Of a stretch of 64,000 nucleotides of DNA, positions 3,032-61,196 are shown in pieces. This DNA is from a virus. A program made the translations under genes and the position numbers. The stretch is from the IMG/VR virus record IMGVR_UViG_3300009790_002068, positions 19,165 through 83,164 of that record. The stretch is one strand, 5' to 3'. Under the pieces are notes generated by a model that was not told where the DNA came from, ran no database searches, and saw only the letters and a list, made by a program, of their open reading frames with translations. Numbering within the stretch: the first letter of the stretch is position 1; each line of letters starts with the position of its first letter.

Positions 3032-4495
3032 ATGAGTGACTTACCCACTAATCTAACAGAATCACAAAAAGATTATGCTATCTTTTTGCCTGCTTTAAGC
3101 TCGTTTTATTCTACGTTTGTTGGTAAGCAACGTTACGAAGAATACACAGCCAACAATAGAATTCCATCTAATATGAATGGACTTGTTGAAAGTGGCAACT
3201 GGTTAGAACCAGCGGCCGGCTTATGGCAATATAAATGGAGCCTATACTCGGCAGGACACGCCAATTTAGATATTGGACAAGTACCAAAAGAAGATATGAC
3301 CAGGAACAGAGACCGTGACAACAGTTGGTTGTTAGGTGACTCAGGTGGCTTCCAAATTGGTAAAGGTAAGTGGGAAGGTGACTGGAGAGCTAATAGCGGT
3401 TGTGCTAAAGCACAAAAGAAACGTGAACAAGTGTTGGCATGGATGGACGAGTACATGGACTATGGAATGGTACTTGATATTCCAGCCTGGGTATCACGTT
3501 CTCCAGAAGGTGCTAAAGCTAGTAATATTAGTTCCTATCAAGAGGCTGTAGAAGGCACAAAATTTAATAACGAATACTTTATTAAAAATCGTAACGGTAA
3601 CTGTAAGTTCTTAAATGTATTACAAGGTGAGAACTTTGCTCAAGCAGATGACTGGTACGAACAAATGAAACACTTCAGTGATCCTAAAGTTTATCCAGAC
3701 AATCATTTTAATGGTTGGTCAATGGGTGGACAGAATATGTGTGATATACATCTAGCATTGAAACGTTTAGTAACATTACGTTTTGATGGTTTACTTGAAC
3801 AAGGTAAACAAGACTTCATGCATTTCTTAGGAACTTCTAAATTAGAATGGGGTGTTATGTTAACTGCCGTCCAACGAGCTGTACGAAAATATCACAATCC
3901 AAGTTTTACAATAACTTATGATTGTGCTTCTCCGTTCTTATGTACAGCTAATGGACAGCAATATACTAATTGGCGTTTGGATCACAAAGGTAAATGGTCT
4001 TACATTATGGAGCCTGCTCCAGATGATAAAGGCTTTGCTCAAGATACAAGACCTTGGGATGAAGAGTGTGAGAAACATCATACAAACTGGTTTCCTAGCC
4101 CACTATCAGAGGGACTGAAAGTTAATGATGTTTGTATATATGCTCCAGGTGATACAAACAAAAATAATAAAGAAGGCAAGACAAGTTGGGATAGCTTTAG
4201 CTATTTCTTAATGATGAATCATAATGTGTACACACATATTAGATCAGTACAAGAAGGCAATAAAGCAATGGACTCTGGTTCATATCCTGCTTGGCTTGTT
4301 AATGAAACGATCACACGTGAATCAGTAGCAGAAGCAATAGATCAAGTATTTGCTATTGACAATCGTGACGAGGCATTAGCCTTTATAGATCACAATACAA
4401 AACTTTGGATGAGAGTTCCTGGTACAAGAGGTGCTATAGGTAAGAAGACAATTAATGCTTCATCTCAATTCAATGCTTTATTCGAGGAGGAATAA
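3032..4495 (+). CDS. TGT-fold guanine transglycosylase, DpdA-like (7-deazaguanine insertion)
   Basis: GDSGGFQ, LDIP, VLQG, HFLG, DCAS and C-terminal HN motifs of the TGT/DpdA family; clustered with folE/queD/queE. Confidence 0.82.
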   Translation: MSDLPTNLTESQKDYAIFLPALSSFYSTFVGKQRYEEYTANNRIPSNMNGLVESGNWLEPAAGLWQYKWSLYSAGHANLDIGQVPKEDMTRNRDRDNSWLLGDSGGFQIGKGKWEGDWRANSGCAKAQKKREQVLAWMDEYMDYGMVLDIPAWVSRSPEGAKASNISSYQEAVEGTKFNNEYFIKNRNGNCKFLNVLQGENFAQADDWYEQMKHFSDPKVYPDNHFNGWSMGGQNMCDIHLALKRLVTLRFDGLLEQGKQDFMHFLGTSKLEWGVMLTAVQRAVRKYHNPSFTITYDCASPFLCTANGQQYTNWRLDHKGKWSYIMEPAPDDKGFAQDTRPWDEECEKHHTNWFPSPLSEGLKVNDVCIYAPGDTNKNNKEGKTSWDSFSYFLMMNHNVYTHIRSVQEGNKAMDSGSYPAWLVNETITRESVAEAIDQVFAIDNRDEALAFIDHNTKLWMRVPGTRGAIGKKTINASSQFNALFEEE

Positions 4496-12149: not shown

Positions 12150-12236
12150 GCCCTCGTGGTGAAATAGGTAAACACAACGGACTTAAAATCCGTCGCCGAA
12201 TTAGGCTTGCCAGTTCGATTCTGGCCGAGGGCACCA
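12150..12236 (+). tRNA. tRNA-Leu (TAA)
   Basis: Acceptor GCCCTCG/CGAGGGC, anticodon loop CT-TAA-AA, long variable arm, GTTCGA T-loop, encoded CCA. Confidence 0.95.
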
Positions 12237-12238
12237 AT

Positions 12239-12313
12239 ATGGGTGTGGTGCTAATGGTAACACAGCGGTCTCCAAAACCGAAGATGAGGGTTCGATTCCT
12301 TCCACCTGTGCCA
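12239..12313 (+). tRNA. tRNA-Trp (CCA)
   Basis: Anticodon loop CT-CCA-AA, GGTTCGATTCC T-arm, encoded CCA. Confidence 0.93.
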
Positions 12314-12320
12314 AAAAAGA

Positions 12321-12398
12321 CTGCCCGTAGCTCAGCAGGATTAGAGCAACAGTCTTCTAAACTGTAGGTCGTAGGTTCGAATCCTACCGGGCAGGCCA
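12321..12398 (+). tRNA. tRNA-Arg (TCT)
   Basis: Acceptor CTGCCCG/CGGGCAG, anticodon loop CT-TCT-AA, encoded CCA. Confidence 0.95.
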
Positions 12399-18546: not shown

Positions 18547-19475
18547 TGGCAAATTTTGCTCAACATGATTTTAGTAAGACAGTAGAAAAGAAGTTTTATT
18601 ACTCTGAAATATTTCACAGTATTCAAGGTGAAGGACATTATACAGGTGTGCCTACTGCTTGGATTAGATTCTTTCTATGTAACTTACAATGTAATGGCTT
18701 TGGACAAATAGATCCAACTAACCCAGACACATATGAACTACCATTTGAGGACTTTGATGTTAGTTCTGTAAAGCGAGTTGAAGACTTGCCTGTATGGGAT
18801 AAAGGCTGTGATAGTTCTTATACTTGGGCGAAGAAGTTTAAAGACCTTATGGGACAAGAAACTCCTACTGCTATGGCAAATAAAATTGTTAATATAATGA
18901 AATGTGATAGCAACCCAGATGGATTATTTTTACATCCAATAAGTAAAATGAAGCAACACTTATGTTTTACAGGTGGCGAACCTTTAATGGTAACAGGGCA
19001 GACAGCTAGTGTTGGAATATATAAAGAATTAGAAAGACAAGGTAACTTACCAAGTTCAATGACATTTGAAACTAATGGTACACAAAAACTAAGACCTGAA
19101 TTTATAGACTGGGCAAGTAGTATACCAGAAGAAGTATTCTTTTCTTGTAGTCCTAAACTGTTTACAGTATCTGGAGAGAAACCAGAGAAAGCTATTAAAC
19201 CTGAGATAGTAGGTGAATATAGAAAAGCATCTGCTAAAGGACAATTAAAATTTGTTGTTGGCGATAAAGATCGCGAATGGGACGAAATGGAATCAGCAAT
19301 AGCTAAATTTAGAGATGCTGGTGTTGATTGGCCTGTATGGGTTATGCCTACAGGAGCAAGGGAAGAAGAACAAACTGCTGGTGCTGGCAAAGTGGCGGAA
19401 CGAGCATTTAAACGAGGATATAATGTGGCGGCTAGAGTACACGTTTATCTATTTGGTAATGCTATAGGAACTTAA
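18546..19475 (+). CDS. queE: 7-carboxy-7-deazaguanine synthase (radical SAM)
   Basis: EIFHSIQGEG, WIRF..CNLQC...CDS, TGGEP, ETNGT, SPK and RVH motifs. Confidence 0.9.
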   Translation: MANFAQHDFSKTVEKKFYYSEIFHSIQGEGHYTGVPTAWIRFFLCNLQCNGFGQIDPTNPDTYELPFEDFDVSSVKRVEDLPVWDKGCDSSYTWAKKFKDLMGQETPTAMANKIVNIMKCDSNPDGLFLHPISKMKQHLCFTGGEPLMVTGQTASVGIYKELERQGNLPSSMTFETNGTQKLRPEFIDWASSIPEEVFFSCSPKLFTVSGEKPEKAIKPEIVGEYRKASAKGQLKFVVGDKDREWDEMESAIAKFRDAGVDWPVWVMPTGAREEEQTAGAGKVAERAFKRGYNVAARVHVYLFGNAIGT

Positions 19476-39516: not shown

Positions 39517-39592
39517 TGGTGGAGGATAGCAGGATCGAACTGCTGACCTCCTGAATGCAAATCAGGCGCTCTCCCGGCTGAGCTAATCCCCC
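39517..39592 (-). tRNA. tRNA-Ala (TGC)
   Basis: Cloverleaf with G3:U70, anticodon TGC, encoded CCA. Confidence 0.95.
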
Positions 39593-39676
39593 ATAGGATT
39601 ATAATGATATTTATTTTTTGATCAGAAGCTAACCGTGGCTTCTGGCGTGTGTATTAGGTCACAACCCCATTGAGTA

Positions 39677-40054
39677 CTAATTGTCTAGTTTTATTTCTGT
39701 AAGATCGTTCTCACGGTCAATAAACTTGTACTCTAATTTCGTAGGTTCAAACTGTTTTAGTTCTTCAAATATGACTTCAGGATTTAGCTCTGAACAAGTG
39801 TATACGTCTAACTGTAACAATCCTGGGTCCATTTCGTCCCAACAATGTAGAGCTATATGACTTGTTTCAATGATAACTAAACCAGTGAGTCCTTTATTGC
39901 CTGGCATATCCACATACGTTGTGATGGGGCCTTGGCATATTTTCATCTCTATTTTTTGAACTAGTTCAGTTAACCATCTATGACACCAACTTTGAGATTT
40001 AGGAGTCTTTTTAGTCTCCGCTCTAATAATTAAGTGTTTGTGCCTACTAGTCAT
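39677..40054 (-). CDS. speD: Pyruvoyl-dependent S-adenosylmethionine decarboxylase family
   Basis: HKHLII, G.TG...IETSHIALHCWDE and LDVYTC motifs. Confidence 0.85.
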   Translation of the reverse strand: MTSRHKHLIIRAETKKTPKSQSWCHRWLTELVQKIEMKICQGPITTYVDMPGNKGLTGLVIIETSHIALHCWDEMDPGLLQLDVYTCSELNPEVIFEELKQFEPTKLEYKFIDRENDLTEIKLDN

Positions 40055-40079
40055 ATTACCCTTTGGCTTTACTTATACT

Positions 40080-40295
40080 TTACTGGAAGAATCTCTTTAG
40101 AACGTCAATTCTGTCCATGTGTGTTGCTATAATATCTAATTCTTTTTGTACTGTTTCTAAAATATCTGAATGCTCTCCAATGCCTACTGTCTTTGATAGA
40201 TATACTTCTACGTTAGTTTTATGTAGAGCAATTTCACCTTCAGCATGAGCGATCAATCCAGCTACAATTTTCTCTCTCATTTCTATTTCTGACAT
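40080..40295 (-). CDS. Small hypothetical phage protein
   Basis: H..NVEVYL...VGIGEHSDILE..QKEL pattern; start after the tRNA 3' end with AGAGGG RBS. Confidence 0.7.
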   Translation of the reverse strand: MSEIEMREKIVAGLIAHAEGEIALHKTNVEVYLSKTVGIGEHSDILETVQKELDIIATHMDRIDVLKRFFQ

Positions 40296-40311
40296 ATTCC
40301 CTCTCCTATAA

Positions 40312-40387
40312 TGGTGCCGCTTCACGGATTCGAACCGCGCACCTACTGATTACAAATCAGTTGCTCTACCAAATGAGCTAAAGCGGC
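40312..40387 (-). tRNA. tRNA-Thr (TGT)
   Basis: Acceptor GCCGCTT/AAGCGGC, anticodon TGT, encoded CCA. Confidence 0.95.
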
Positions 40388-48918: not shown

Positions 48919-51021
48919 CTATTTTGTAGTAGCTACATATACACCATCCCAATCTTTAGGCGGTGGATTAATTTTATAATCTTTAATTCGATCAGTTATA
49001 ATAGTATAATAACTATCTAACTCTCCGGAAAACTTACCCATTAGGTTATCGATAGCATCTTCACAGAACTTCCAGTTCTGCTTAACATAATTTTCTCTTA
49101 ATTTACAATGTAAATCAACAAGGTGATGTAGTTGAGCAATTTCTTCTAGTTTAACAATGTCAGGATCAACAACAGTATAAATCGCTACTGGTTCTTTTTT
49201 ACCTTTAACAGCAATAGAATCTAATTCTAAAATTGTGTGCTTACCTGTTAAAGCCTTTGCTGTTTCTTGTCCAAATAATATTTTCACACCGTATCCTTTC
49301 GTTTGTCCTTCTAGTCTGGCCGCTAAATTAACAGCGTCACCTAAACAACTATAATCAAATCTTTGATCTGAACCCATGTTACCTACAACAGCATCGCCTG
49401 TATTAAGACCAATTCCTATGTTAATTGGTAACATCTTTTCTTTAGTTAACTGAGTATTTAACTCTTTTAAGCCCTTTAACATACTAATACTGGTATCAAC
49501 AGCTTTATCGGCCTGTTGTTCTACATCTAAAGGAGCATTCCAAAACGCCATAATACAGTCACCCATATACTTGTCAACAGTACCTTCATTTACCATAATA
49601 ATATCCGTCATTGGTGTTAAGAACCTATTAACTAATTCCGTTAGTCCTTGTGGGTTAGTTTTAAATTGCTCTGATATAGGAGTAAACCCTCTAATATCAC
49701 AGAACAATAAAGTTAACTGTCTAGTATCACCACCCAATTTCAATAAGTCTGGATTCTTCTGGAGCTTTTTAACCATTGCCGGAGCTAGATAATGTTCAAA
49801 CTGTTTCTTGATTTGTTGTTTAAGCATAAACTCTTTTACAAATCTATTAAAGACAGCATGAAATCCAACAACAAAAATCATTACTGCTGGCATAGTAGGA
49901 TCTATTAGCCAAAGTTTAGTGTTAAACAAATATGTTACTCCATATCCAATACCACCCAAACTAGAAATAATTAGTATACCACTAAACCAATAAGGAGCAA
50001 AAGCAATAACAACAACAAGTAAAAGTCCAATAGCAAGTATTCCACCAAGTTCGTATAAGTCAGCCCACATAGGACGCTCTACAGTTTCGCCTAATATAAT
50101 TGTGCTTAATGTACTACCTATAATTTCGTGTGGATACTTTTCACCTAAAGGTGTAGCAACCGGATTGCCTAATCCTTCTGCTGTTAATCCTATAATAACA
50201 GTTTTACCTTCAATGCCTTCTAAACCATCTACTGTATAATTAAGTGTTGGTATGTCAGCATTCCAACGTAAAAATAATCTACCTCTATCGTCAGTTTTAA
50301 TAATTCCTCTGTTAATAGGAAAGCCTTTTACTCTAACACTATGAATTCCGTATGGTGTAGTTTTCATTTGATAACTGTCTACACCCATCATTACTCTTAA
50401 TGTTTCTATTGCTATATTAGGATACAAATCTCCTTGTACGTTAATAAGCAAAGGAACACGTCTTACAACGCCATCTACTTCTGGTGCTGTACTAATAACA
50501 CCTACACCATCTACTACGTCAGCTAACGAAGTTAGAGGCCCTAGCATACCTGGATATGTAAATAAATTGTTGGCCGCATCTTTATTACCACCAACCATAC
50601 TAACGCCACGAGGTATACCCGTTGTGCTTTTTTGTATGCTACCTGTCTGTGCTATAACTACACCATTTTGGTAAAGCATTTCCATAAACTCTTGATCTTT
50701 ATTAAACCTATCTGCTTCACTAAACAATACAGGTAAAACAATTACTCCAGCACCGGCCATTCTTAATTCTAATATTAATTGTGCTATCTTATCTCTAGGC
50801 CAAGGCCATTGTCCGTTTGACTCTATACTTGCTTCGCCTAAAGTTACATAAACTAAATTATTATCTTGGTAAACTGTTTCATTTTGTAGTTGGTAATCAA
50901 AACTCTTTAACTTTGCTGTTTGAACAACCCAAGGATTAACAAACACCATATAAGCTATAGCAAAAACTGTAAGGAATGGAATAGTCCAATGTGTTAAAAT
51001 CTTACTTAACTTTGTTTTCAT
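48919..51021 (-). CDS. CHASE2-domain class III adenylate/guanylate cyclase
   Basis: GQWPWPR and DGVVRRVPL (CHASE2), three TMs, then LFCDIRGFT, DKYMGDCIMAFWNAP, GIGLNTG and GDAVNLAARLE. Confidence 0.95.
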   Translation of the reverse strand: MKTKLSKILTHWTIPFLTVFAIAYMVFVNPWVVQTAKLKSFDYQLQNETVYQDNNLVYVTLGEASIESNGQWPWPRDKIAQLILELRMAGAGVIVLPVLFSEADRFNKDQEFMEMLYQNGVVIAQTGSIQKSTTGIPRGVSMVGGNKDAANNLFTYPGMLGPLTSLADVVDGVGVISTAPEVDGVVRRVPLLINVQGDLYPNIAIETLRVMMGVDSYQMKTTPYGIHSVRVKGFPINRGIIKTDDRGRLFLRWNADIPTLNYTVDGLEGIEGKTVIIGLTAEGLGNPVATPLGEKYPHEIIGSTLSTIILGETVERPMWADLYELGGILAIGLLLVVVIAFAPYWFSGILIISSLGGIGYGVTYLFNTKLWLIDPTMPAVMIFVVGFHAVFNRFVKEFMLKQQIKKQFEHYLAPAMVKKLQKNPDLLKLGGDTRQLTLLFCDIRGFTPISEQFKTNPQGLTELVNRFLTPMTDIIMVNEGTVDKYMGDCIMAFWNAPLDVEQQADKAVDTSISMLKGLKELNTQLTKEKMLPINIGIGLNTGDAVVGNMGSDQRFDYSCLGDAVNLAARLEGQTKGYGVKILFGQETAKALTGKHTILELDSIAVKGKKEPVAIYTVVDPDIVKLEEIAQLHHLVDLHCKLRENYVKQNWKFCEDAIDNLMGKFSGELDSYYTIITDRIKDYKINPPPKDWDGVYVATTK

Positions 51022-53808: not shown

Positions 53809-54498
53809 TTAGTCTGTTTGACTTATGTCAACGTCGTGACTAGCACCTGATGTAATCAAGTTTGTATTAGCATCATTAGTTCCACTTACAACAACATCAA
53901 AGTTTCCTGAAGATCCTGTGTGATGCATAGTTACACTATGACCAGCACTATCACCGTCGCCGTCAACATCAATGTTAAATGTATTTGTTGAACCTACTAT
54001 TGTTAATGAAGTTGGAGCACTAGCACCATCAACATCAATATTAGCTGTGTTAGTATCGCCTGTAATCTGTAATGTAACGTCTGAGTCAGCAGAGTTTCTA
54101 ATTGTACCTACATCAATGTCAATGTCGTTACTATCACCTGTTGAACCAGAATCAGTTACGTCAATATCAACGTTCCAGTTATCACAGTTATAGTTTCCAG
54201 TAGCATCACAATTTAAAACAATGTTGTTACTGTTACCAGTTACATCTATATCAACACTAGCTGAAGCACCTTCAACGTCTGCCGCCAAAATGTTACTGTT
54301 ACCAGTTTGAGTTACACTAAATGCCATAGTAGCACCTATCAACGATGCTCTAGCACTTGATGTACCAAATACGTTATTTGTACCATCTTGGACTACGTCT
54401 AAGTTTAGACTTGCTCCGCTTTGTGTAATATAAATGTCGTTGGCCCACACAGAAGTTGAAAACAGGAAAGTTAGTAAAGTTATAATTATTTTTTTCAT
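53809..54498 (-). CDS. Curlin-like (CsgA/CsgB-like) repeat protein
   Basis: Signal peptide MKKIII..VWA|NDIYITQSG; repeats Q.G..N...; ends ISQTD. Confidence 0.75.
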   Translation of the reverse strand: MKKIIITLLTFLFSTSVWANDIYITQSGASLNLDVVQDGTNNVFGTSSARASLIGATMAFSVTQTGNSNILAADVEGASASVDIDVTGNSNNIVLNCDATGNYNCDNWNVDIDVTDSGSTGDSNDIDIDVGTIRNSADSDVTLQITGDTNTANIDVDGASAPTSLTIVGSTNTFNIDVDGDGDSAGHSVTMHHTGSSGNFDVVVSGTNDANTNLITSGASHDVDISQTD

Positions 54499-54511
54499 AA
54501 TATCCTTTTCC

Positions 54512-55390
54512 TTATCTATTAAAAGTGTCTGGAACCCAACTATCAACAATGACTTTTTCTTCTTTTAGTTCTGTCTTTATTTCTTGTTTAGATTCTTTCA
54601 CTTCGTTTACTTTCTTATAAGCCCAAAGATTTTTTTGTTTACCTTTTTCAATCAAGTTACAGACTGCTAATTCAATAGCAAGTCTTGTAGCTACATTTAC
54701 TGGTTCGTTAAGTGCCGTTCCTATTTCTGCTTCAAGTGGTTCTGTTCCAGCATCCATCCAACGGAAAACATCACCTTGTGTTTTTACACTTATGATTGTT
54801 TTTGTTGTAGTAGATGTTAATAAAACTTCTCCGCTTGATACAGATACTAATCTAATACTGACCGTTACTGTATCTCTTGTGTATTGAGTATTTGCTCCAA
54901 TGCCTAGCACTCGAGCTCCGTACCCGCCTGATTCAAGGTTGCTGTCGTATCCAACTATGGCTCCTTCTATTAAAACTCCAGCAAACAATAGAGGTTGTAG
55001 GACATCTTGGTCTTTATTAAGCTCTCTTGTTTGTCTTATAATTTGTCTTTCTTTTATAAGGTGATCAATACCAGTTCGTTCAACAACTTGGAACCAACTA
55101 CTATCTCCTACTTCTTTAAGAGTTTCTATTAGATAAGCACCAGCACCTTGGGTAACTGCTGAGCTTAAATGTGCTATTTGTCCAGGCTTTCTTTGGCCAG
55201 TTAAGTCACTAAACTGATATACTGCTACAGTAATCAGTGGACCATCTAGCTTTGGAAAGTTCTTGACATCTTGTGAGGCATTTTGTACACCAGCGTCAGA
55301 ATAATGCTTTTTGTAAGTATTATTACTAACTGTCGCTGTACAGCCTACCAAGAACATAGCAACTAGGATTATTGAAAATATCTTGTTCAT
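54512..55390 (-). CDS. csgG: Curli secretion channel CsgG-like lipoprotein
   Basis: Lipobox LVG|C, VAVYQFSDLTGQRKP, SSAVTQG, WFQVVER, ERQIIR and EGAIVGYD motifs. Confidence 0.92.
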   Translation of the reverse strand: MNKIFSIILVAMFLVGCTATVSNNTYKKHYSDAGVQNASQDVKNFPKLDGPLITVAVYQFSDLTGQRKPGQIAHLSSAVTQGAGAYLIETLKEVGDSSWFQVVERTGIDHLIKERQIIRQTRELNKDQDVLQPLLFAGVLIEGAIVGYDSNLESGGYGARVLGIGANTQYTRDTVTVSIRLVSVSSGEVLLTSTTTKTIISVKTQGDVFRWMDAGTEPLEAEIGTALNEPVNVATRLAIELAVCNLIEKGKQKNLWAYKKVNEVKESKQEIKTELKEEKVIVDSWVPDTFNR

Positions 55391-55848
55391 TAGAATGCAA
55401 AATCTCCTACAGGTACTGACATTGTTGTAACAGTTCCATCGGACTCTGTAATCCTAATGTTAATGTTATCTCCAACTTTTTCCCAGTAAATGATGTTGTC
55501 TTCTATTTCGGCAGTACCACTTGTAGCACTACCTTCTCCAAACATATTATCAACTAACTGTTTGGATAATTGAGCATAGATACGACTTTCTACGTTGACT
55601 AAAAATTTCTTAACAGTATTTTGAGTGGCTTGTCTTTCAGCTTCTTTGGCTTCTGCTTCTGCTTTGTCTTTTACTTCTTTTTGACGTGTGAAGCGAAGCT
55701 GTTCTACTGATAAAACGTGAGATGAATAACCGTTTCCAGAATGAAAGGAAGGGTTTTTAAACCCAAACTCCAACTGTTGAGCTCTTAGGCTCGTGTTGAA
55801 ACCCACGGTGATCACTAAGACCGCGGCGATTATTATGTATCTCGTCAT
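55390..55848 (-). CDS. csgF: Curli assembly protein CsgF-like
   Basis: Signal peptide then L.F.FKNPSF..G; adjacent to csgG. Confidence 0.82.
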   Translation of the reverse strand: MTRYIIIAAVLVITVGFNTSLRAQQLEFGFKNPSFHSGNGYSSHVLSVEQLRFTRQKEVKDKAEAEAKEAERQATQNTVKKFLVNVESRIYAQLSKQLVDNMFGEGSATSGTAEIEDNIIYWEKVGDNINIRITESDGTVTTMSVPVGDFAF

Positions 55849-56164: not shown

Positions 56165-56452
56165 TCAGAGAGTATTTAAGTCGATGTCAAGCGATTTTAT
56201 TCTATGGTGTAATCGTTCCCTTGATATTCCTAAATCCCTGGCCGCCTTCGCTATTACATTATGGTTGTTTTGAAGGGCTCTTTGTATATTCTTCTTTTCT
56301 AAGTTCTTAAGATAGTCTGGTAACGGTTCACTCGGATCTGGTGTGAAGAAATCATCATCTGGAATTGAAAACTGAAGGTCGTCTAATGACTTCCATATAA
56401 ATTCCTGCTCTGTGATGTGATCAGCCGTCATAAAACTTTTTCGGTCTGTCAT
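56165..56452 (-). CDS. Stand-alone Fis-type HTH protein
   Basis: L..LEK..I..AL......AKAARDLGISR..L..RIK HTH_8 motif. Confidence 0.85.
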   Translation of the reverse strand: MTDRKSFMTADHITEQEFIWKSLDDLQFSIPDDDFFTPDPSEPLPDYLKNLEKKNIQRALQNNHNVIAKAARDLGISRERLHHRIKSLDIDLNTL

Positions 56453-56480: not shown

Positions 56481-56494
56481 GTATTTATAAATAC
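56481..56494. promoter_or_regulatory. Palindromic bidirectional late promoter
   Basis: Perfect palindrome GTATTTATAAATAC with TATAAATA on both strands, between divergent genes. Confidence 0.7.
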
Positions 56495-56521: not shown

Positions 56522-57001
56522 TTGGATCCAATTACGGCAGTAGCGACAGCAACCGCGGCCTTCAATACGATTAAACAAGGTTTTCAAGCAGGTAGAGATA
56601 TTGAAGGTATGGCAGGCGACTTAGGTCGCTGGATGGGTGCTGTTTCAGACATTAAAAAAGCAGAAGAATATTCTAAAAATCCTCCACTATTTAAAAAGTT
56701 ATTTAAAGCAGGTTCAGTAGAAGAAGAAGCATTAGCGGCCTTTATGGCTAAAAAGAAAGCTGAAGATATGAGAGCTCAACTTCGAGATATTATTTCATTT
56801 TCTCGAGGACCTAGTGCCTGGAATGATCTTTTAAAAACAGAAGCAGATATAAGAAAGAAAAGGCAAGATGCAATATACAATCAAAAAGAACGCCAAAGAA
56901 AGTTCTTTGAGGTTATTGCTGTTGTACTTGCCTGTCTTTTATGTGTGGCAGTAGTAGGTGGTATAGTTTATCTAATAATGTTAGATAGGGGAATGGTGTA
57001 A
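56522..57001 (+). CDS. Hypothetical protein with C-terminal TM anchor
   Basis: MDPITAVATATAAF...GSVEEEAL pattern; TTG start after GAGGGG. Confidence 0.72.
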   Translation: MDPITAVATATAAFNTIKQGFQAGRDIEGMAGDLGRWMGAVSDIKKAEEYSKNPPLFKKLFKAGSVEEEALAAFMAKKKAEDMRAQLRDIISFSRGPSAWNDLLKTEADIRKKRQDAIYNQKERQRKFFEVIAVVLACLLCVAVVGGIVYLIMLDRGMV

Positions 57002-57008
57002 GAGGCAG

Positions 57009-57056
57009 TTATCTGCCACTTACAAAATCATTCTCTTCATCTGTATAAGGCCACAT
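57009..57056 (-). CDS. Micro-ORF, 15 aa (MWPYTDEENDFVSGR)
   Basis: TAATG-coupled to the upstream ORF. Confidence 0.35.
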   Translation of the reverse strand: MWPYTDEENDFVSGR

Positions 57057-57220
57057 TATTTTTGTACCATTAATGCTTTAGCTTGTTTATGGTAACCCAT
57101 TCTTGCCAATTCAGCAGATGCTCTAGCTCTACCAATAGTTTCTGATGTTTCTATTACTGATTTGCCAAATTTTCTTAGTGATTCACATAAAGAACAATAC
57201 GCCATTGTTATTGTAGTCAT
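57056..57220 (-). CDS. Small protein, 54 aa (not in ORF track)
   Basis: MTTITMAYCSLCESLRKFG...IGRARASAELARMGYHKQAKALM; TAATG-coupled. Confidence 0.7.
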   Translation of the reverse strand: MTTITMAYCSLCESLRKFGKSVIETSETIGRARASAELARMGYHKQAKALMVQK

Positions 57221-57399
57221 TATCTAATATACCTCTTATCTTTAGGACCTTTGCCTTCATTATCTAACATATATTGATAAGCATATTGCCAATCATTTCT
57301 GTATTCAGTTTTAGCATAGTCAAGGTATTCTTTGTTGATTTCTTTGATATTAGGGCGTATCAAAAACGCCGCAAGGTTAGTGAATAGTCGTTGAACCAT
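57220..57399 (-). CDS. Small protein, 59 aa (not in ORF track)
   Basis: MVQRLFTNLAAF...YAKTEYRNDWQYAY; GGAG RBS. Confidence 0.7.
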   Translation of the reverse strand: MVQRLFTNLAAFLIRPNIKEINKEYLDYAKTEYRNDWQYAYQYMLDNEGKGPKDKRYIR

Positions 57400-57424
57400 T
57401 TTGTTTTCTCCGTATATATAAATT

Positions 57425-57550
57425 TTACTCGATGCTTAAGGAAAGCAATACCGCGGTCTTTTCCGCTGTCAGTCTGTTGTAAGGCGTAGCCACCGCCCTA
57501 GTCTTTCCTAGAGTCACTCTTTTTTTCTGAGCCGAGGACGCTCTTTGGAC
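57425..57550 (-). ncRNA. Putative structured leader/ncRNA
   Basis: GC-rich non-coding island with five consecutive hairpins, between a TATAAATA box and the small-ORF operon. Confidence 0.55.
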
Positions 57551-57589
57551 AAAAACAAAATGAATATTTGTTGTATCTTTATCCACCTT

Positions 57590-57597
57590 TATTTATA
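57590..57597 (-). promoter_or_regulatory. T4-type late promoter box
   Basis: TATAAATA on the minus strand, ~40 nt upstream of the structured RNA. Confidence 0.6.
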
Positions 57598-57651
57598 ATT
57601 GTAGAATAGAAATAGCTCTGTTATAGAAACAAAGCTGTTATGCTTTTTTGC

Positions 57652-58899
57652 TTAATCTAAAAGTGATGTCATTGAGAACTGGTGAGTGAATGTTCCGCCT
57701 TCTTTAAACGGAACTGTAAATTTGACAAACTCTTTTCCTGAGCTATCTTTAATAACCAATAAACAAGAAACAGTTTCTTCTTTATTAGGAAACTTCCATT
57801 CAAATTCCCAGTCTGATTTTAATGTGTCGTATAGTTCTTTAAATTTAGGACTTGTTCTACTGCTAACTGTTTTCTTTGCTTTGCCAACTTTACCTACAGC
57901 AAGATAAACATCATCTGCTCCATCAAGTCCTAGTAAGTTTAGCATTCTTTCATTGATTCTTTTCTTATTCTTTTCTGTATAAAAATAACTCCACATATCA
58001 TCAAATAGTAAAGTTCTCATACTTTGGTAGCCTTTATTAGCTGTAATATAAGCATTGGCATTTTCTCTACCAGAGCCACCTTCTTTGTACCATGGCTGGT
58101 CACTAAACTCATCTGGATTCTTTTTAATCTTTCTCCAGTTATCAGTAATGCTTAAAACATTTTCAATCTTTTCTTTATACTCGTCTGCTTTACTTTGTTC
58201 TAAAGCATCTAAGAAACTTGCTATAGCATTTTTACCTACAGGTGGATTATCATTACCTATTAGTACTCTATTAATCCATGAAGCAAACGTGGCATTATAA
58301 ACATTAACACCACTAGCAGAATTGTATAGTTTCAAACTAGCTTTAATTGTATCAACAACTTCTTCTGTGCTTTTCTTTTTAATTGTAACTGTAATATCTT
58401 CTTTACCAGAGCCCATAGCTTCTACACCATCATGCTTAATAGATACATCAATAAATGCTAGGTCGTTTGCTTCTGATAATTCTTTATATAATAATTTTGC
58501 TGTAGCTTCTGAGCCTTCTTCAGCTCTTTGAATTTCGCTTTTTACTTGAGCTTCACCTTCTTTGAAATTTTCTGTATGGTCTAAGATATATTGTCTATAT
58601 CCTTCATATGTAGCTTTTAATCCAGGACCTGGACTAGTAACATCAACGCCAGCTTCTTGTAAAGCTACGCCTAATTTATAGGCTACAGCGTGTTCGTTAA
58701 AATAGCCTATCATTCCTGTTAAGCCTTTTGGATTAATTTCTTCTTTTATCACTCTTGGTATCTTAAAACTAGTTTCCTCACCAAATCCTAGACTATTAAT
58801 AGCATTAGATACAGCACTAACAATTCTTCCATAAATCTTACGAAAGAAATCGCCAACCTTTGATAATATACCTTCAGATAAAAATTCTTTTGCTCTCAT
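57652..58899 (-). CDS. Hypothetical late protein with capsid-targeting-like N-terminus; possible PD-(D/E)xK nuclease
   Basis: MRAKEFLSE N-terminus; E...KEDITV...KASLK; GATAAATA box upstream. Confidence 0.5.
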   Translation of the reverse strand: MRAKEFLSEGILSKVGDFFRKIYGRIVSAVSNAINSLGFGEETSFKIPRVIKEEINPKGLTGMIGYFNEHAVAYKLGVALQEAGVDVTSPGPGLKATYEGYRQYILDHTENFKEGEAQVKSEIQRAEEGSEATAKLLYKELSEANDLAFIDVSIKHDGVEAMGSGKEDITVTIKKKSTEEVVDTIKASLKLYNSASGVNVYNATFASWINRVLIGNDNPPVGKNAIASFLDALEQSKADEYKEKIENVLSITDNWRKIKKNPDEFSDQPWYKEGGSGRENANAYITANKGYQSMRTLLFDDMWSYFYTEKNKKRINERMLNLLGLDGADDVYLAVGKVGKAKKTVSSRTSPKFKELYDTLKSDWEFEWKFPNKEETVSCLLVIKDSSGKEFVKFTVPFKEGGTFTHQFSMTSLLD

Positions 58900-58941: not shown

Positions 58942-59592
58942 TTAGCACTCGCCAGGGTCTGTTAGCCCTAGCTGGTTGAATCCCCACTCACGTTCTTTAC
59001 ACCACATACATTTATTACACCTTCCTACGGTATTTGCTGTACAACTGTGAGTTGGTTTTATTAGTTCCTCTGCTTGTAGCTTATAAAATAAGTCTATTAT
59101 ATGGTATTTGTAAAGAGGTAGAAATGGTGTTCTCACAACATCACTAATAACTCTCCACGGCCTTTCTCCTCTGCTATGCTGATCATTAAATCCAGCAAAC
59201 TCAGGGAAATCAAATCCTAATGGTATTTGATGATTAACTCCATCATATATTAATTTAAATCTGTTTGATTCTACTAATTCTTGTGTGGGTTTTAAACTGT
59301 TTTTCTCATCTGCTGTTCCAATAAGCTCTGGAGCAGAACCTGGGCGTTTTAACATTCTATAAACTGTGTCGTGTACATTATGAGAATGAGTTTTGGCATC
59401 ATCTGCCGATCTAGGAACACAAAATGTCTTAATGCTTATAGCTGGATTCATTACAGATAAAGCATAAAATAAAATAGCACTATCCATTCCACCGGATACA
59501 AATACTGCTATTTCATCTATATGTTTAGGTACAACTAAATCTATTACTCTTCGGTCCCACTTCGGACCTACAATAATTAAGTTCTCTTCCAT
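58942..59592 (-). CDS. QueC-like PP-loop ATPase, paralog 2
   Basis: SGGMDS, PFL.L.K and THSC......CNKCMWCKER.W Zn-site motifs. Confidence 0.78.
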   Translation of the reverse strand: MEENLIIVGPKWDRRVIDLVVPKHIDEIAVFVSGGMDSAILFYALSVMNPAISIKTFCVPRSADDAKTHSHNVHDTVYRMLKRPGSAPELIGTADEKNSLKPTQELVESNRFKLIYDGVNHQIPLGFDFPEFAGFNDQHSRGERPWRVISDVVRTPFLPLYKYHIIDLFYKLQAEELIKPTHSCTANTVGRCNKCMWCKEREWGFNQLGLTDPGEC

Positions 59593-60288
59593 TTAATCAG
59601 TCCTGCCAAAGCCCCACTCACGTTCTTTACAAAACCAACATTCTCCACAATGGTGACTAAAGTCGGTTGTATATGCTTCACAGCTTCTTGTCTGATCAAA
59701 CAAACTGCCAGGTTCCATTAGACTAAATTGATTATAGATTTCTGCTACACCTTTTTTATCTGTATTAATAAAAGGTCTATAACCCGGATGGCACCCGTCG
59801 TTATTAAATTGATCAAATACACCATGCCTCTCATACAACAATGGATCTGTTCCATCTTCGTCAAATTGTTCGTGTACCTCTTTAGGTGGGTTTTGTGTTA
59901 AACCCATATAATGTCGTTGTACACCTGTGTGGCCTGGTTCATCATTACAAGTATTATTATATGCTTGATCTAAAATAAGATCTTGTGTATCTGAATAATC
60001 CATATCACCTGATCTCATATTTGTTATATGGTCTATTACTTTTACACTAGGAAATTCTTTTTGTAACCATTTAATAACTTTTGTAGCAAACTCTACCTGA
60101 TATGCTTTAGTATCATAATCTGTTGTTACAATAACAACTTCTACATCTAGGTTTTGTTCGTGTATAGTTTTAAATATCATATAAGATACTCCAGCACTAT
60201 CAAGGCCACCGGATACTTTAATAGCAATTTTGCTTACATCTTTTAGGCTGGTAAAATCGTATGTGTCTTGGGAAGATTTGAATATCAT
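59593..60288 (-). CDS. QueC-like PP-loop ATPase, paralog 1
   Basis: SGGLDS, PFIN.DK and TRSC.......HCGECWFCKER.W motifs. Confidence 0.78.
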   Translation of the reverse strand: MIFKSSQDTYDFTSLKDVSKIAIKVSGGLDSAGVSYMIFKTIHEQNLDVEVVIVTTDYDTKAYQVEFATKVIKWLQKEFPSVKVIDHITNMRSGDMDYSDTQDLILDQAYNNTCNDEPGHTGVQRHYMGLTQNPPKEVHEQFDEDGTDPLLYERHGVFDQFNNDGCHPGYRPFINTDKKGVAEIYNQFSLMEPGSLFDQTRSCEAYTTDFSHHCGECWFCKEREWGFGRTD

Positions 60289-61196
60289 TATGCTCCTTCC
60301 TCGAACAGTTCGTTAAAGTTATTCATTGGTTCTACAACATCTTCTGGATTGTAATTCATTATTAATAGTTCAGTACGTTCAGGTCTTATACCTGTACCCA
60401 TTTTACCATCTTTACGAACTGCTCCTTCTTGTTTCTTAAGTCCGTTATTAGTATATGTAACTTCTTCATGCCAATAGTATTTGTTTCTAGGTAACATAGT
60501 TTCTAATTCAGGAAAATGATAATAGCTTAATGCCCATTTGCCTTTAGTATGTTTTAACATTTCTAATAATTCTATATGATCAAGTTTACCAAATTCATCT
60601 TCTGTATAATAACTTTCAAGTTTAAAATAAGGCGGATCAATATAGAAAAATGTGTCAGCATGATCATACTTTCTAATTAAATCTCTACAATCCATATTCT
60701 CAACTGTTAAGTGACTTAACTTGTCCAAGTATTTAACTTGTTGAAACTTTTCTGTAAAAGTCTTGAACTTCGGTTTATAGTTTTCGTTGTGATACATCTT
60801 TGTTGTTTTTGTTAAACCATTACCGCCACTGAATATCTGCATCTGTAATAACATATACTTCGCGGCTAAATCGTAATCTGGTATAGGAAATTTTTGATTA
60901 TAGATAGCAAATACTTCATCTCTGTATTCTATAAACTTATCTCCATCGCCTATGTCTTTATAATAGCTTAAACAAGTTTGTTCCATTTTAGCAGGATCTG
61001 TACTGCTACATAAGAACACGTTTGCTAAATGTCTATTAAAGTCATTATAAACATTAACAGTAGCAGGTAGCTTTCCGCTCATCCAGTACATCCACATAGC
61101 ACCACCAAACACTTCTATATACTTTGTAGTGTTTTCAGGAAAGAATGGATCTATCCATTTGCTGTGTTGTTTTTTACCACCTATATATGGAAACAT
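60288..61196 (-). CDS. DNA adenine methyltransferase (Dam/D12 class)
   Basis: YIGGK, EVFGGA, YND, FFYIDPPY and ELLIMNY motifs. Confidence 0.9.
   Translation of the reverse strand: MFPYIGGKKQHSKWIDPFFPENTTKYIEVFGGAMWMYWMSGKLPATVNVYNDFNRHLANVFLCSSTDPAKMEQTCLSYYKDIGDGDKFIEYRDEVFAIYNQKFPIPDYDLAAKYMLLQMQIFSGGNGLTKTTKMYHNENYKPKFKTFTEKFQQVKYLDKLSHLTVENMDCRDLIRKYDHADTFFYIDPPYFKLESYYTEDEFGKLDHIELLEMLKHTKGKWALSYYHFPELETMLPRNKYYWHEEVTYTNNGLKKQEGAVRKDGKMGTGIRPERTELLIMNYNPEDVVEPMNNFNELFEEGA

Follow-up and report, generated by a model that had tools for sequence, protein, structure and literature searches.

By analogy, the closest precedent for a leader RNA joined to microprotein genes appears to be the ccaF1-ccsR locus. 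There the DUF1127 protein CcaF1 binds Cuckoo/CcsR hairpin RNAs issued from its own transcript and matures them with RNase E; each of these RNAs has two hairpins with CCUCCUCCC in each loop, and in S. meliloti the Cuckoo RNAs appear to derive from the 5′ untranslated region (UTR) of a DUF1127 open reading frame (ORF) (PMC8034643). A different leader-based control of a DUF1127 gene is described in PMC12218461. Here we report a structured leader RNA in front of three microprotein genes in viral DNA. It lies on the minus strand of a stretch of 64,000 nt (hereafter the window), positions 19,165 to 83,164 of the IMG/VR record IMGVR_UViG_3300009790_002068, a viral contig of 83,164 bases rated 23% complete. 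Segment 57009-57597, single-copy in this contig, is a self-contained unit composed of a TATAAATA box, a GC-rich multi-hairpin leader of ~160 nt and ORFs of 59, 54 and 15 aa (ORF59, ORF54 and ORF15) linked by TAATG overlaps, all of which could be read in the sequence as a preliminary description of the window had proposed. Judging from its relatives on other viral contigs, the leader almost certainly exists as a conserved, covarying, non-coding and strand-specific RNA structure tied to the microprotein operon.

The family was collected by way of ORF59 and by way of the RNA itself. Searches with the single ORF59 protein found relatives on 13 viral contigs and searches with its alignment on 221, 80 of them being retained; matches to cellular genome records were limited to two, a Flavobacteriales metagenome-assembled genome (MAG) and a Bacteroidetes single-cell assembly. 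The non-coding segment upstream of ORF59 relatives was conserved at the nucleotide level in 14 loci (L002-L014, L018) and in nearly all loci collected later. The word of the terminal hairpin alone, with the protein ignored, retrieved at least 118 viral contigs. Among the matches listed, the first downstream ORF could be evaluated in 110 copies and was a canonical ORF59 in 98, a diverged ORF59-like gene in 7 and a DUF1127 gene in 5, while 8 further listed copies had too short a downstream sequence. This strict linkage, with an ORF59-type gene after 105 of the 110 evaluable copies, fits the RNA-microprotein module that had been put forward among several readings. Altogether 104 unique 150-nt leader variants were collected from uncultured marine viral contigs, and DNA of this stretch was found in marine and seawater metagenomes, its holders spanning 16 studies with RNA runs included. 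As to known RNA families, Rfam 15 returned only 5 tRNAs in the window at the gathering threshold; six matches at 56950-57700 with E up to 10 were at chance level (at most 17.3 bits versus gathering scores of 40-92), and no match on any leader was obtained in seven diverse relatives at E up to 1. The leader thus matches no Rfam family in the window or in these relatives, in line with the preliminary description, which could assign it to none.

Folding energy was uninformative. The minimum free energy (MFE) of the sense strand, -35.0 kcal/mol, was equalled by 76 of 200 shuffles (z -0.31), and the opposite strand gave no signal either (z -0.27). RNAalifold on a raw MAFFT alignment of 48 sequences returned 0 pairs because the hairpins are out of register in it. 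We examined covariation in an unfitted MAFFT alignment of 30 unique copies of the commonest, 120-nt architecture, on which hairpins A-E were annotated (seed alignment A4). In this alignment 4/5 pairs of hairpin B and 4/6 pairs of hairpin C were changed on both sides, with 98% and 95.6% of cells paired, respectively. The covariation score of the whole structure was 0.250 versus 0.068 in shuffles, none of 500 reaching it, and slid controls were 28-44% paired versus 92% for the annotated structure. Hairpins D and E were invariant here, and hairpin A was out of register in half of the rows.

A covariance model (R1) built from this seed gave exactly one match in each of 100 sources, the one in the window lying at 57430-57526 on the minus strand (43.8 bits, E 3.3e-10). 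In the alignment derived from R1 (A5, 93 distinct rows), 92.7% of cells were standard pairs versus 73.6% in shuffles and both-side changes occurred in 22 of the 28 modelled pairs (403 cells). The covariation score reached 0.345 versus 0.094, 0/500 shuffles attained any of five measures, and slid controls were 30-44% paired. All five pairs of the hairpin homologous to hairpin A (helix 1) were changed on both sides, the five pairs of hairpin B (helix 2) were all compensatory, and the four pairs of hairpin D (helix 4) were all changed on both sides while remaining 99.7% paired. Hairpin E (helices 5 and 6) was almost invariant in A5 and formed invariant columns in alignment A3; it contains one covarying pair (C-G 85, U-A 6, A-U 1). 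Homologs of the leader thus covary, as the preliminary description had suggested examining, in A5 as well as in hairpins B and C of the unfitted seed. The pair table of A5 sums to 48 G.U cells, which would be A.C if read on the other strand, and this places the structure on the ORF-sense strand. Of 82 unique leaders, 65 contain stops in each of the three frames.

In the window copy (all coordinates on the minus strand unless stated), the leader forms a GC island, 0.53 at 57450-57549 versus 0.24-0.37 in the flanks. Its 5′ part folds into an H-type pseudoknot (57517-57543): stem 1, GAGC/GCUC, pairs 57543-57540 with 57532-57529 with GUC as loop 1, stem 2, CUC/GAG, pairs 57536-57534 with 57519-57517 and is extended by G.A at 57533/57520, and the A-rich loop 3, AGAAAAAA, occupies 57528-57521. 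The five hairpins listed in the preliminary description are all present, but the first of them is really stem 1 of this pseudoknot. A gapless alignment of 23 unique pseudoknot copies (A6) showed stem 1 as GAGC/GCUC or AAGC/GCUU, its outer pair being A-U in 12 and G-C in 11, and four loop nucleotides pairing with the segment after the eight-base A-rich tract to give stem 2, one pair of which was C-G in 20, A-U in 2 and U-A in 1. Cells of A6 were 96.7% paired versus 21-38% with partners slid. With two covarying pairs only, this comparative support for the pseudoknot is real but thin. The element is also optional, present in 25 of the 75 operons tested; the commonest architecture has a different 5′ hairpin in its place.

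The pseudoknot is followed by hairpin A, CUCUAG[GAAAGA]CUAGGG (57496-57513), which is preceded by GAGUGA and whose AGA hexaloop is closed by G-C, and by hairpin B, GGCG[GUGGCUA]CGCC (57483-57497), which precedes a conserved CCUUA(C/A)AA; the two overlap, two G (57497-57496) being common to both stems. A single-stranded linker, UUACAACAGACUGACA (57467-57482, read by eye in the alignment), leads to hairpin D, GCGG[AAAAGA]CCGC (57453-57466). The window copy thus carries two AGA hairpins (57513-57496 and 57466-57453), hairpin B and, directly 3′ of hairpin D, the terminal hairpin E, GGuAUuGCUU[UCCUU]AAGCAUC (57431-57452), with a core UGCUU[UCCUU]AAGCA at 57447-57433, a CCU pyrimidine loop and a ...CAUC(C) tail. 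Hairpin E ends ~20 nt before the GGAG Shine-Dalgarno (SD) sequence of ORF59 (57408-57411).

Comparison of the copies revealed a modular family. Hairpin E, nearest to the SD, is its most conserved element, GGuAUuGCUU[UCCUC]AAGCAUCC, with CCU in every loop (UCCUC 54, UCCUU 17 and CCCUC 12 in the census), and is the sole pyrimidine-loop hairpin. Two anti-SD-like loops had been pointed out in the window copy; only the one in the terminal hairpin is conserved as pyrimidine-rich. Upstream of hairpin E stand hairpins, one to four in number, whose G-C-closed loops end in AGA: among 93 unique cores, 48 have one, 28 two, 15 three and 2 four. The commonest loops of this class are GAAAGA (38), GAUAGA (37), AAAAGA (27) and CAAAGA (15), their conserved part being ...AGA plus the closing C, and in many copies UGAC(A/G) precedes the hairpin (alignments, read by eye). 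Loops (...AGA, CCU) and linkers (CCUUACAAG, UGACR) are conserved while stems vary. The shortest leaders consist of one AGA hairpin plus hairpin E and the longest have three AGA hairpins in tandem; the common form additionally has hairpin B, the linker CCUUA(C/A)AAG and, optionally, a CC-AAA-GG hairpin. In the 83-kb contig we counted 5 AGA-type hairpins versus 1.9 expected, only the two of the leader being well formed; the three outside, weak AU-rich 4-bp stems, were rejected as other targets of a putative hairpin-binding factor. The exact complementarity of AGGAAAG and CUUUCCU, noticed beforehand and interpreted as a kissing loop or switch, does exist in the window copy but is not conserved in the family: a match of 7 nt is seen in 26 of the 93 unique copies and one of 3 nt in the commonest loop combination listed, and shuffled loops performed equally. 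On visual inspection the loops of hairpins A and B were complementary in some copies; this was inconsistent and was discarded.

Downstream of the leader, ORF59 (57220-57399, AUG at 57399) encodes a microprotein with a conserved AKTEY..DW..AY..M, ORF54 (57056-57220) one with an N-terminal CxxC followed by G(R)ARA.(A)EL.R.GY, and ORF15 (57009-57056) the peptide MWPYTDEENDFVSGR; the start of ORF54 overlaps the stop of ORF59, and that of ORF15 the stop of ORF54, both as TAATG. Such overlaps are also the rule in the operons of relatives, and the microprotein genes may well be translationally coupled. A census of 75 non-redundant operons with at least 1.3 kb downstream counted ORF59 in 73, ORF54 in 55, DUF1127-like genes in 55 and the MWPY peptide in 47. 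The latter appears as 43 different sequences over its 47 operons, all keeping MWPY(T/N)..E, and relatives of ORF54 were found in 42 viral loci as well as in the Methylophilales phage Melnitz. On comparative grounds the genes of ORF59, ORF54 and the 15-aa peptide are clearly real. Neither ORF59 nor ORF54 belongs to a Pfam family (DUF1127, PF06568, included) or a PHROG family, and in Atlas both match anonymous viral clusters only. AlphaFold models (AF2) predicted a helical hairpin for each, with predicted local distance difference test (pLDDT) values of 72.6 for ORF59 (46-sequence alignment) and 73.3 for ORF54 (45-sequence alignment). Among partner proteins of relatives, Pfam confirmed DUF1127 in four (36.7-41.4 bits versus a cut-off of 23.3) and DUF3563 in one. 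Most members of the ORF54 family (alignment A8) carry a single N-terminal CxxC, as do some DUF1127 partners (L018, Melnitz), and two such half-sites could come together around one metal ion in a dimer or hetero-dimer. In one relative locus (L002:4130-4244, plus strand), two tandem glutamine riboswitch aptamers (RF01739, 57.6 and 60.6 bits versus a gathering score of 35) are located just after the microprotein operon and directly before a 63-aa ORF (4268-4459).

The unit is preceded, after the upstream 415-aa gene, by a terminator-like hairpin at 57614-57636 (a consensus scan, pattern match only), with a 9-bp stem, 3 G-C pairs and then ATTTCTATTC, which would mark its 5′ border. The promoter-like TATAAATA box, followed by AAGGTG, lies at 57590-57597 and is identical to the T4 late-promoter consensus. 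A [T/G/A]ATAAATA box is kept in 47 of 48 aligned leaders. In the window the octamer is depleted (5 found versus 12.2 expected), and all 5 boxes are intergenic and on the strand of the downstream ORF. The distance from box to AUG is 191 nt at the leader versus 21-33 nt at the other four. Two of the boxes overlap head to head (TATTTATAAATA, 56482-56493) between divergent genes encoding a Fis-type helix-turn-helix protein (56165-56452, minus strand) and a 159-aa membrane-type protein (56522-57001, plus strand; phrog_32327), each ~30 nt from a start codon, in what looks like a compact two-way promoter. At the other end of the unit, a hairpin GGCAG[AUAA]CUGCC read from the sequence (57004-57017, either strand) spans the stop of ORF15 between convergent genes and faces that of the 159-aa protein; it was not called by the terminator scan and is tentatively a possible two-way terminator.

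RNA-library contigs from three studies cover 57232-57465, 57276-57465 and 57314-57465, thus running unbroken from the start of hairpin D through hairpin E and the SD into ORF59. The similarity of those from relatives breaks off precisely at 57465, where hairpin D starts, and ORF54 is also covered. This cover is consistent with transcription, not proof of it; parts of the stretch left uncovered by such contigs, the upstream 415-aa gene for instance, are uninformative. One fold-back contig from an RNA library stops at 57581, nine bases downstream of the box, a weak hint of the 5′ end of the transcript. We then considered the accessibility of the ORF59 SD. Its predicted unpaired probability in the window copy was 0.12, versus 0.49 with shuffled leaders; over the family it was 0.39 versus 0.49, at or below the shuffled value in 70 of 97 copies. 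In minimum-energy folds the SD pairs with the hairpin E region in 55/97 copies and is free in 23/97. These predictions are suggestive only of an occlusion of the SD by the leader.

The reading that we favour, although tentatively, is that of a new, widely conserved structured 5′ leader acting as a protein-recognised cis operator. It is favoured because loops are conserved on freely varying stems and are repeated in variable number, as in protein-binding arrays; a fixed ligand pocket would not be expected to vary in unit number as the AGA-hairpin array does. In this scheme, transcripts would begin with the leader just downstream of the TATAAATA box and, in the window, would fold into the pseudoknot, two (G/A)AAAGA hexaloop hairpins, one further hairpin and the terminal CCU hairpin before the ORF59 SD. 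The AGA-loop hairpins, each usually placed after UGAC(R), would be sites for a small RNA-binding protein, most likely a product of the same operon, either ORF59 or the DUF1127 proteins of most relatives. Site occupancy would set translation initiation at the ORF59 SD, possibly also mRNA stability or processing, and translational coupling would carry the effect on to ORF54 and the 15-aa peptide. Control of the microproteins by the leader is most likely; the binding of a protein, the identity of the binder and the effect on translation are inferred.

Several observations weigh against this operator or against parts of its evidence. Alignment A5, from which the main covariation count is taken, is a model-fitted one and consequently favours structure; the unfitted A4 result for hairpins B and C is, at the level of sequence comparison, independent support for it. 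The RNA-library evidence consists of contigs, in which some DNA may be present and from which neither transcript ends nor expression level can be read. The signal of SD occlusion is modest and comes from related sequences, and the predicted helix, around an 11-nt loop, has only ~4 bp. No RNA-binding features are known in ORF59 (no family, a plain helical hairpin, anonymous look-alikes), and DUF1127, the best-precedented binder, is absent from the window operon and from its incomplete 83-kb contig. Finally, no association was observed between the module content of leaders and the gene content of operons.

The main rival, possible but doubtful, is that the leader is the precursor of a trans-acting RNA or acts as one. 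It might be a 5′-UTR-derived small RNA (sRNA) that base-pairs, through its terminal pyrimidine loop, with the SD regions of mRNAs of the host or the phage, or a sponge tying up a host RNA-binding protein late in infection, as Cuckoo/CcsR with CcaF1. The terminal hairpin is indeed the most conserved element and its loop (UCCUC, UCCUU, CCCUC) is anti-SD-like, as in the CcsR loops (PMC8034643); moreover, DUF1127 genes occur in 55/75 operons, and a hairpin array with a variable number of units resembles sponge RNAs. But no terminator or U-tract follows the terminal hairpin, and RNA-library contigs run unbroken from hairpin D into ORF59. The CCUCCUCCC motif is absent, the pyrimidine loop is restricted to one hairpin and no Rfam sRNA family matches. 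A CsrA-type sponge is further disfavoured by purine loops that lack GGA (AAAAGA 27, CAAAGA 15). A related scheme, which we regard as speculative and somewhat less probable still, is a phage ribonucleoprotein (RNP) module: the array would be cut from the mRNA and serve as a stable scaffold assembling ORF59, ORF54, DUF1127 and MWPY proteins, its terminal loop redirecting host ribosomes or RNA-binding proteins late in infection. Such a module would be the viral equivalent of the alphaproteobacterial DUF1127/Cuckoo system and might be linked to it by evolution.

Next comes a passive stabiliser or translational enhancer, where 5′ structures block 5′-end-dependent decay and leave an open A-rich ribosome site, with no regulator. 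Every architecture does start with a 5′-proximal structure, the pseudoknot or the alternative 5′ hairpin, an A-rich spacer precedes a strong SD, and this SD is free in the 23/97 minimum-energy folds mentioned above. What makes this explanation rather improbable is that a stabiliser needs stems and not conserved loops, while here loops and linkers are conserved and stems vary; the other four TATAAATA-driven genes of the window also do without such a leader.

A riboswitch sensing a small molecule or an ion, in which the pseudoknot or the conserved junctions would form the aptamer, is unlikely, and clearly more so than the preceding explanations. The topology is that of small pseudoknot aptamers (a stem, its loop paired to a segment lying 3′, and an A-rich loop connecting them), linkers are conserved, QueC-like genes lie 1.3 kb upstream and the window has a cyclase-like gene. 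Yet the pseudoknot is present in only 25/75 operons and the number of hairpins varies from 1 to 4, no Rfam riboswitch matched at E up to 10 and the genes that follow encode microproteins, without a metabolic link. A stem closing a junction is missing, as is a terminator-type expression platform, and the anti-SD helix is weak; the riboswitch or thermosensor envisaged in the preliminary description is disfavoured on these grounds. Lastly, an element acting at the level of DNA, be it a promoter or operator array, or else a short coding frame, has very little credibility and is largely refuted by the comparative data: the UGACR...UAUUGC spacing is loosely like -35/-10, with better -10-like words in two relatives (TATAAT in L085, TATCAT in L100), and one frame is open through the window leader (a 53-aa GTG frame, 57425-57586), but compensatory changes keep pairing, G.U pairs are strand-specific, a sigma-70 scan found no site in the leader, and with stops in every frame of most leaders the GTG frame was rejected as incidental.

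Concerning the viruses that carry the RNA, blastn against cultured phages with the window leader and with the commonest architecture gave no match, nor did ORF59 by tblastn in the cultured phages of the collection; the only cultured phages with ORF54 relatives were the Melnitz phages. The homologous operon of Melnitz (an OM43 and Methylophilales phage, Kyanoviridae; L139:2100-2900, MZ577097.1 ~30.8-31.6 kb) comprises the same TATAAATA box, a ~110-nt leader, a small ORF, an ORF54 homolog and a DUF1127 gene. This leader is unrelated, with no nhmmer match to the family, and, being without detectable similarity, may hold a different leader RNA. No annotated gp55 was found in Melnitz 1-50 kb.

The accessory genes of the window (cyclase, curli genes, ORF54) are common to HTVC008M or Melnitz. 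The 700-aa cyclase-like protein (48919-51021, minus strand) has close cultured relatives only in Pelagibacter phage HTVC008M and the Melnitz phages, where these proteins, 43-46% identical to it, are annotated as adenylate/guanylate cyclases. Curli-secretion genes occupy 53809-55848 on the minus strand (CsgG 167 bits, CsgF 68 bits; Pfam), and downstream of CsgG/CsgF a secreted-looking protein of 246 aa with repeated ..Q.G..N.. units (53809-54549, no Pfam match) could be a curlin-like subunit. The pelagimyophage study PMC7029224 presents the CsgG/CsgF cluster as typical of pelagimyophages and reports the curlin-like subunit as missing there. A pelagimyophage lineage, first drawn from the curli genes and the cyclase, became doubtful when searches for the T4-type capsid protein and portal came back empty: Gp23 was missing in 8 RNA-bearing contigs (83-237 kb) and the T4 portal in 4, all of them incomplete, whereas the Melnitz positive control scored 498 and 633 bits. 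Arithmetic from completeness values puts the chance of all eight partial contigs lacking the capsid gene at ~1%. CheckV completeness of these contigs (G000-G007) was 23-67%, implying a genome of ~360 kb, and they may represent an uncultured jumbo-phage lineage.

The window also contains two adjacent, diverged QueC-like PP-loop ATPase paralogues of 216 and 231 aa (58942-61196, minus strand) with a D12-class adenine methyltransferase upstream, which may form a DNA or RNA base-modification cluster. Its five tRNA genes (12150-12398 and 39517-40387) are a cluster of Leu-taa, Trp-cca and Arg-tct, and Ala-tgc and Thr-tgt on the other strand.

We consider the leader a new RNA class among structured phage mRNA leaders or RNA-small-protein modules. 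Among the former, the leader of T4 gene 32 mRNA carries a 5′ pseudoknot and is regarded as an autogenous translational control site. T4-family translational operators resemble the present RNA as phage mRNA leaders with a 5′ pseudoknot and then further elements up to the SD. The sequence differs, however, a hairpin array stands here in place of the unstructured A/U tract there, microproteins and not a single-stranded DNA-binding protein lie downstream, and no T4-type capsid or portal gene was found on the RNA-bearing contigs, all incomplete. The preQ1-I aptamers share a compact H-type pseudoknot in which loop nucleotides pair with a segment after an A-rich tract. Their ligand-pairing base sits between the 5′ strand of stem 2 and the 3′ strand of stem 1, where our pseudoknot has no nucleotides; in addition, the latter is optional, gave no Rfam match at E up to 10 and precedes microprotein and not queuosine genes. 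CsrB/RsmZ are protein-sponge RNAs in which most hairpin loops contain GGA. A variable number of short repeated hairpins whose loops are rich in purines is common to them and the leader, which differs in that GGA is missing from many of its loops (those with AAAAGA or CAAAGA) and in being fused to an mRNA instead of forming a free sRNA.

A survey based on covariation in intergenic regions of IMG/VR 3.0, an earlier release of this type of data, proposed 8,495 anonymous 'DNAVirus_X' candidates of 29-151 nt and, in addition, candidate leaders in front of GP32 and GP20 (PMC10690425; Fremin, Bhatt and Kyrpides 2023). Parts of our leader may be among these candidates; the main text, as far as accessible, names no such motif, architecture, pseudoknot, operon or DUF1127 link. 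In the literature accessible to us we found no description of this leader motif, the supplementary candidate lists of PMC10690425 being outside the comparison.

The structured regulatory RNAs of uncultured marine phages and the functions of phage microproteins, both almost unexplored, are paired here: a covarying modular leader is tied to an operon of 15-90-aa proteins on more than 100 marine viral contigs of up to 237 kb. Its covariance model provides a marker for a phage lineage of which the collection searched contains no cultured representative, and the family offers a testable system in which tiny proteins, DUF1127-type and others, would meet RNA, with a compact pseudoknot and a repeated hexaloop hairpin to probe. 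Set beside the ccaF1-ccsR locus, it is alike in the array of short hairpins on one transcript with very small protein genes, DUF1127 among them, and in the pyrimidine, anti-SD-like hairpin loop. It is unlike it in lacking the full CCUCCUCCC motif, most of its hairpins having purine ...AGA loops, and in giving no Rfam match. Its constant partner is ORF59 and not DUF1127 (73 versus 55 of 75); DUF1127 stands next to the RNA in the operons of those 55 relatives, with none in the window or the incomplete 83-kb contig. Moreover, the ccaF1-ccsR system is cellular, whereas the present one is viral. If the leader should prove to be a protein-binding operator or a processed sRNA, the DUF1127/Cuckoo principle would extend from alphaproteobacteria to viruses.

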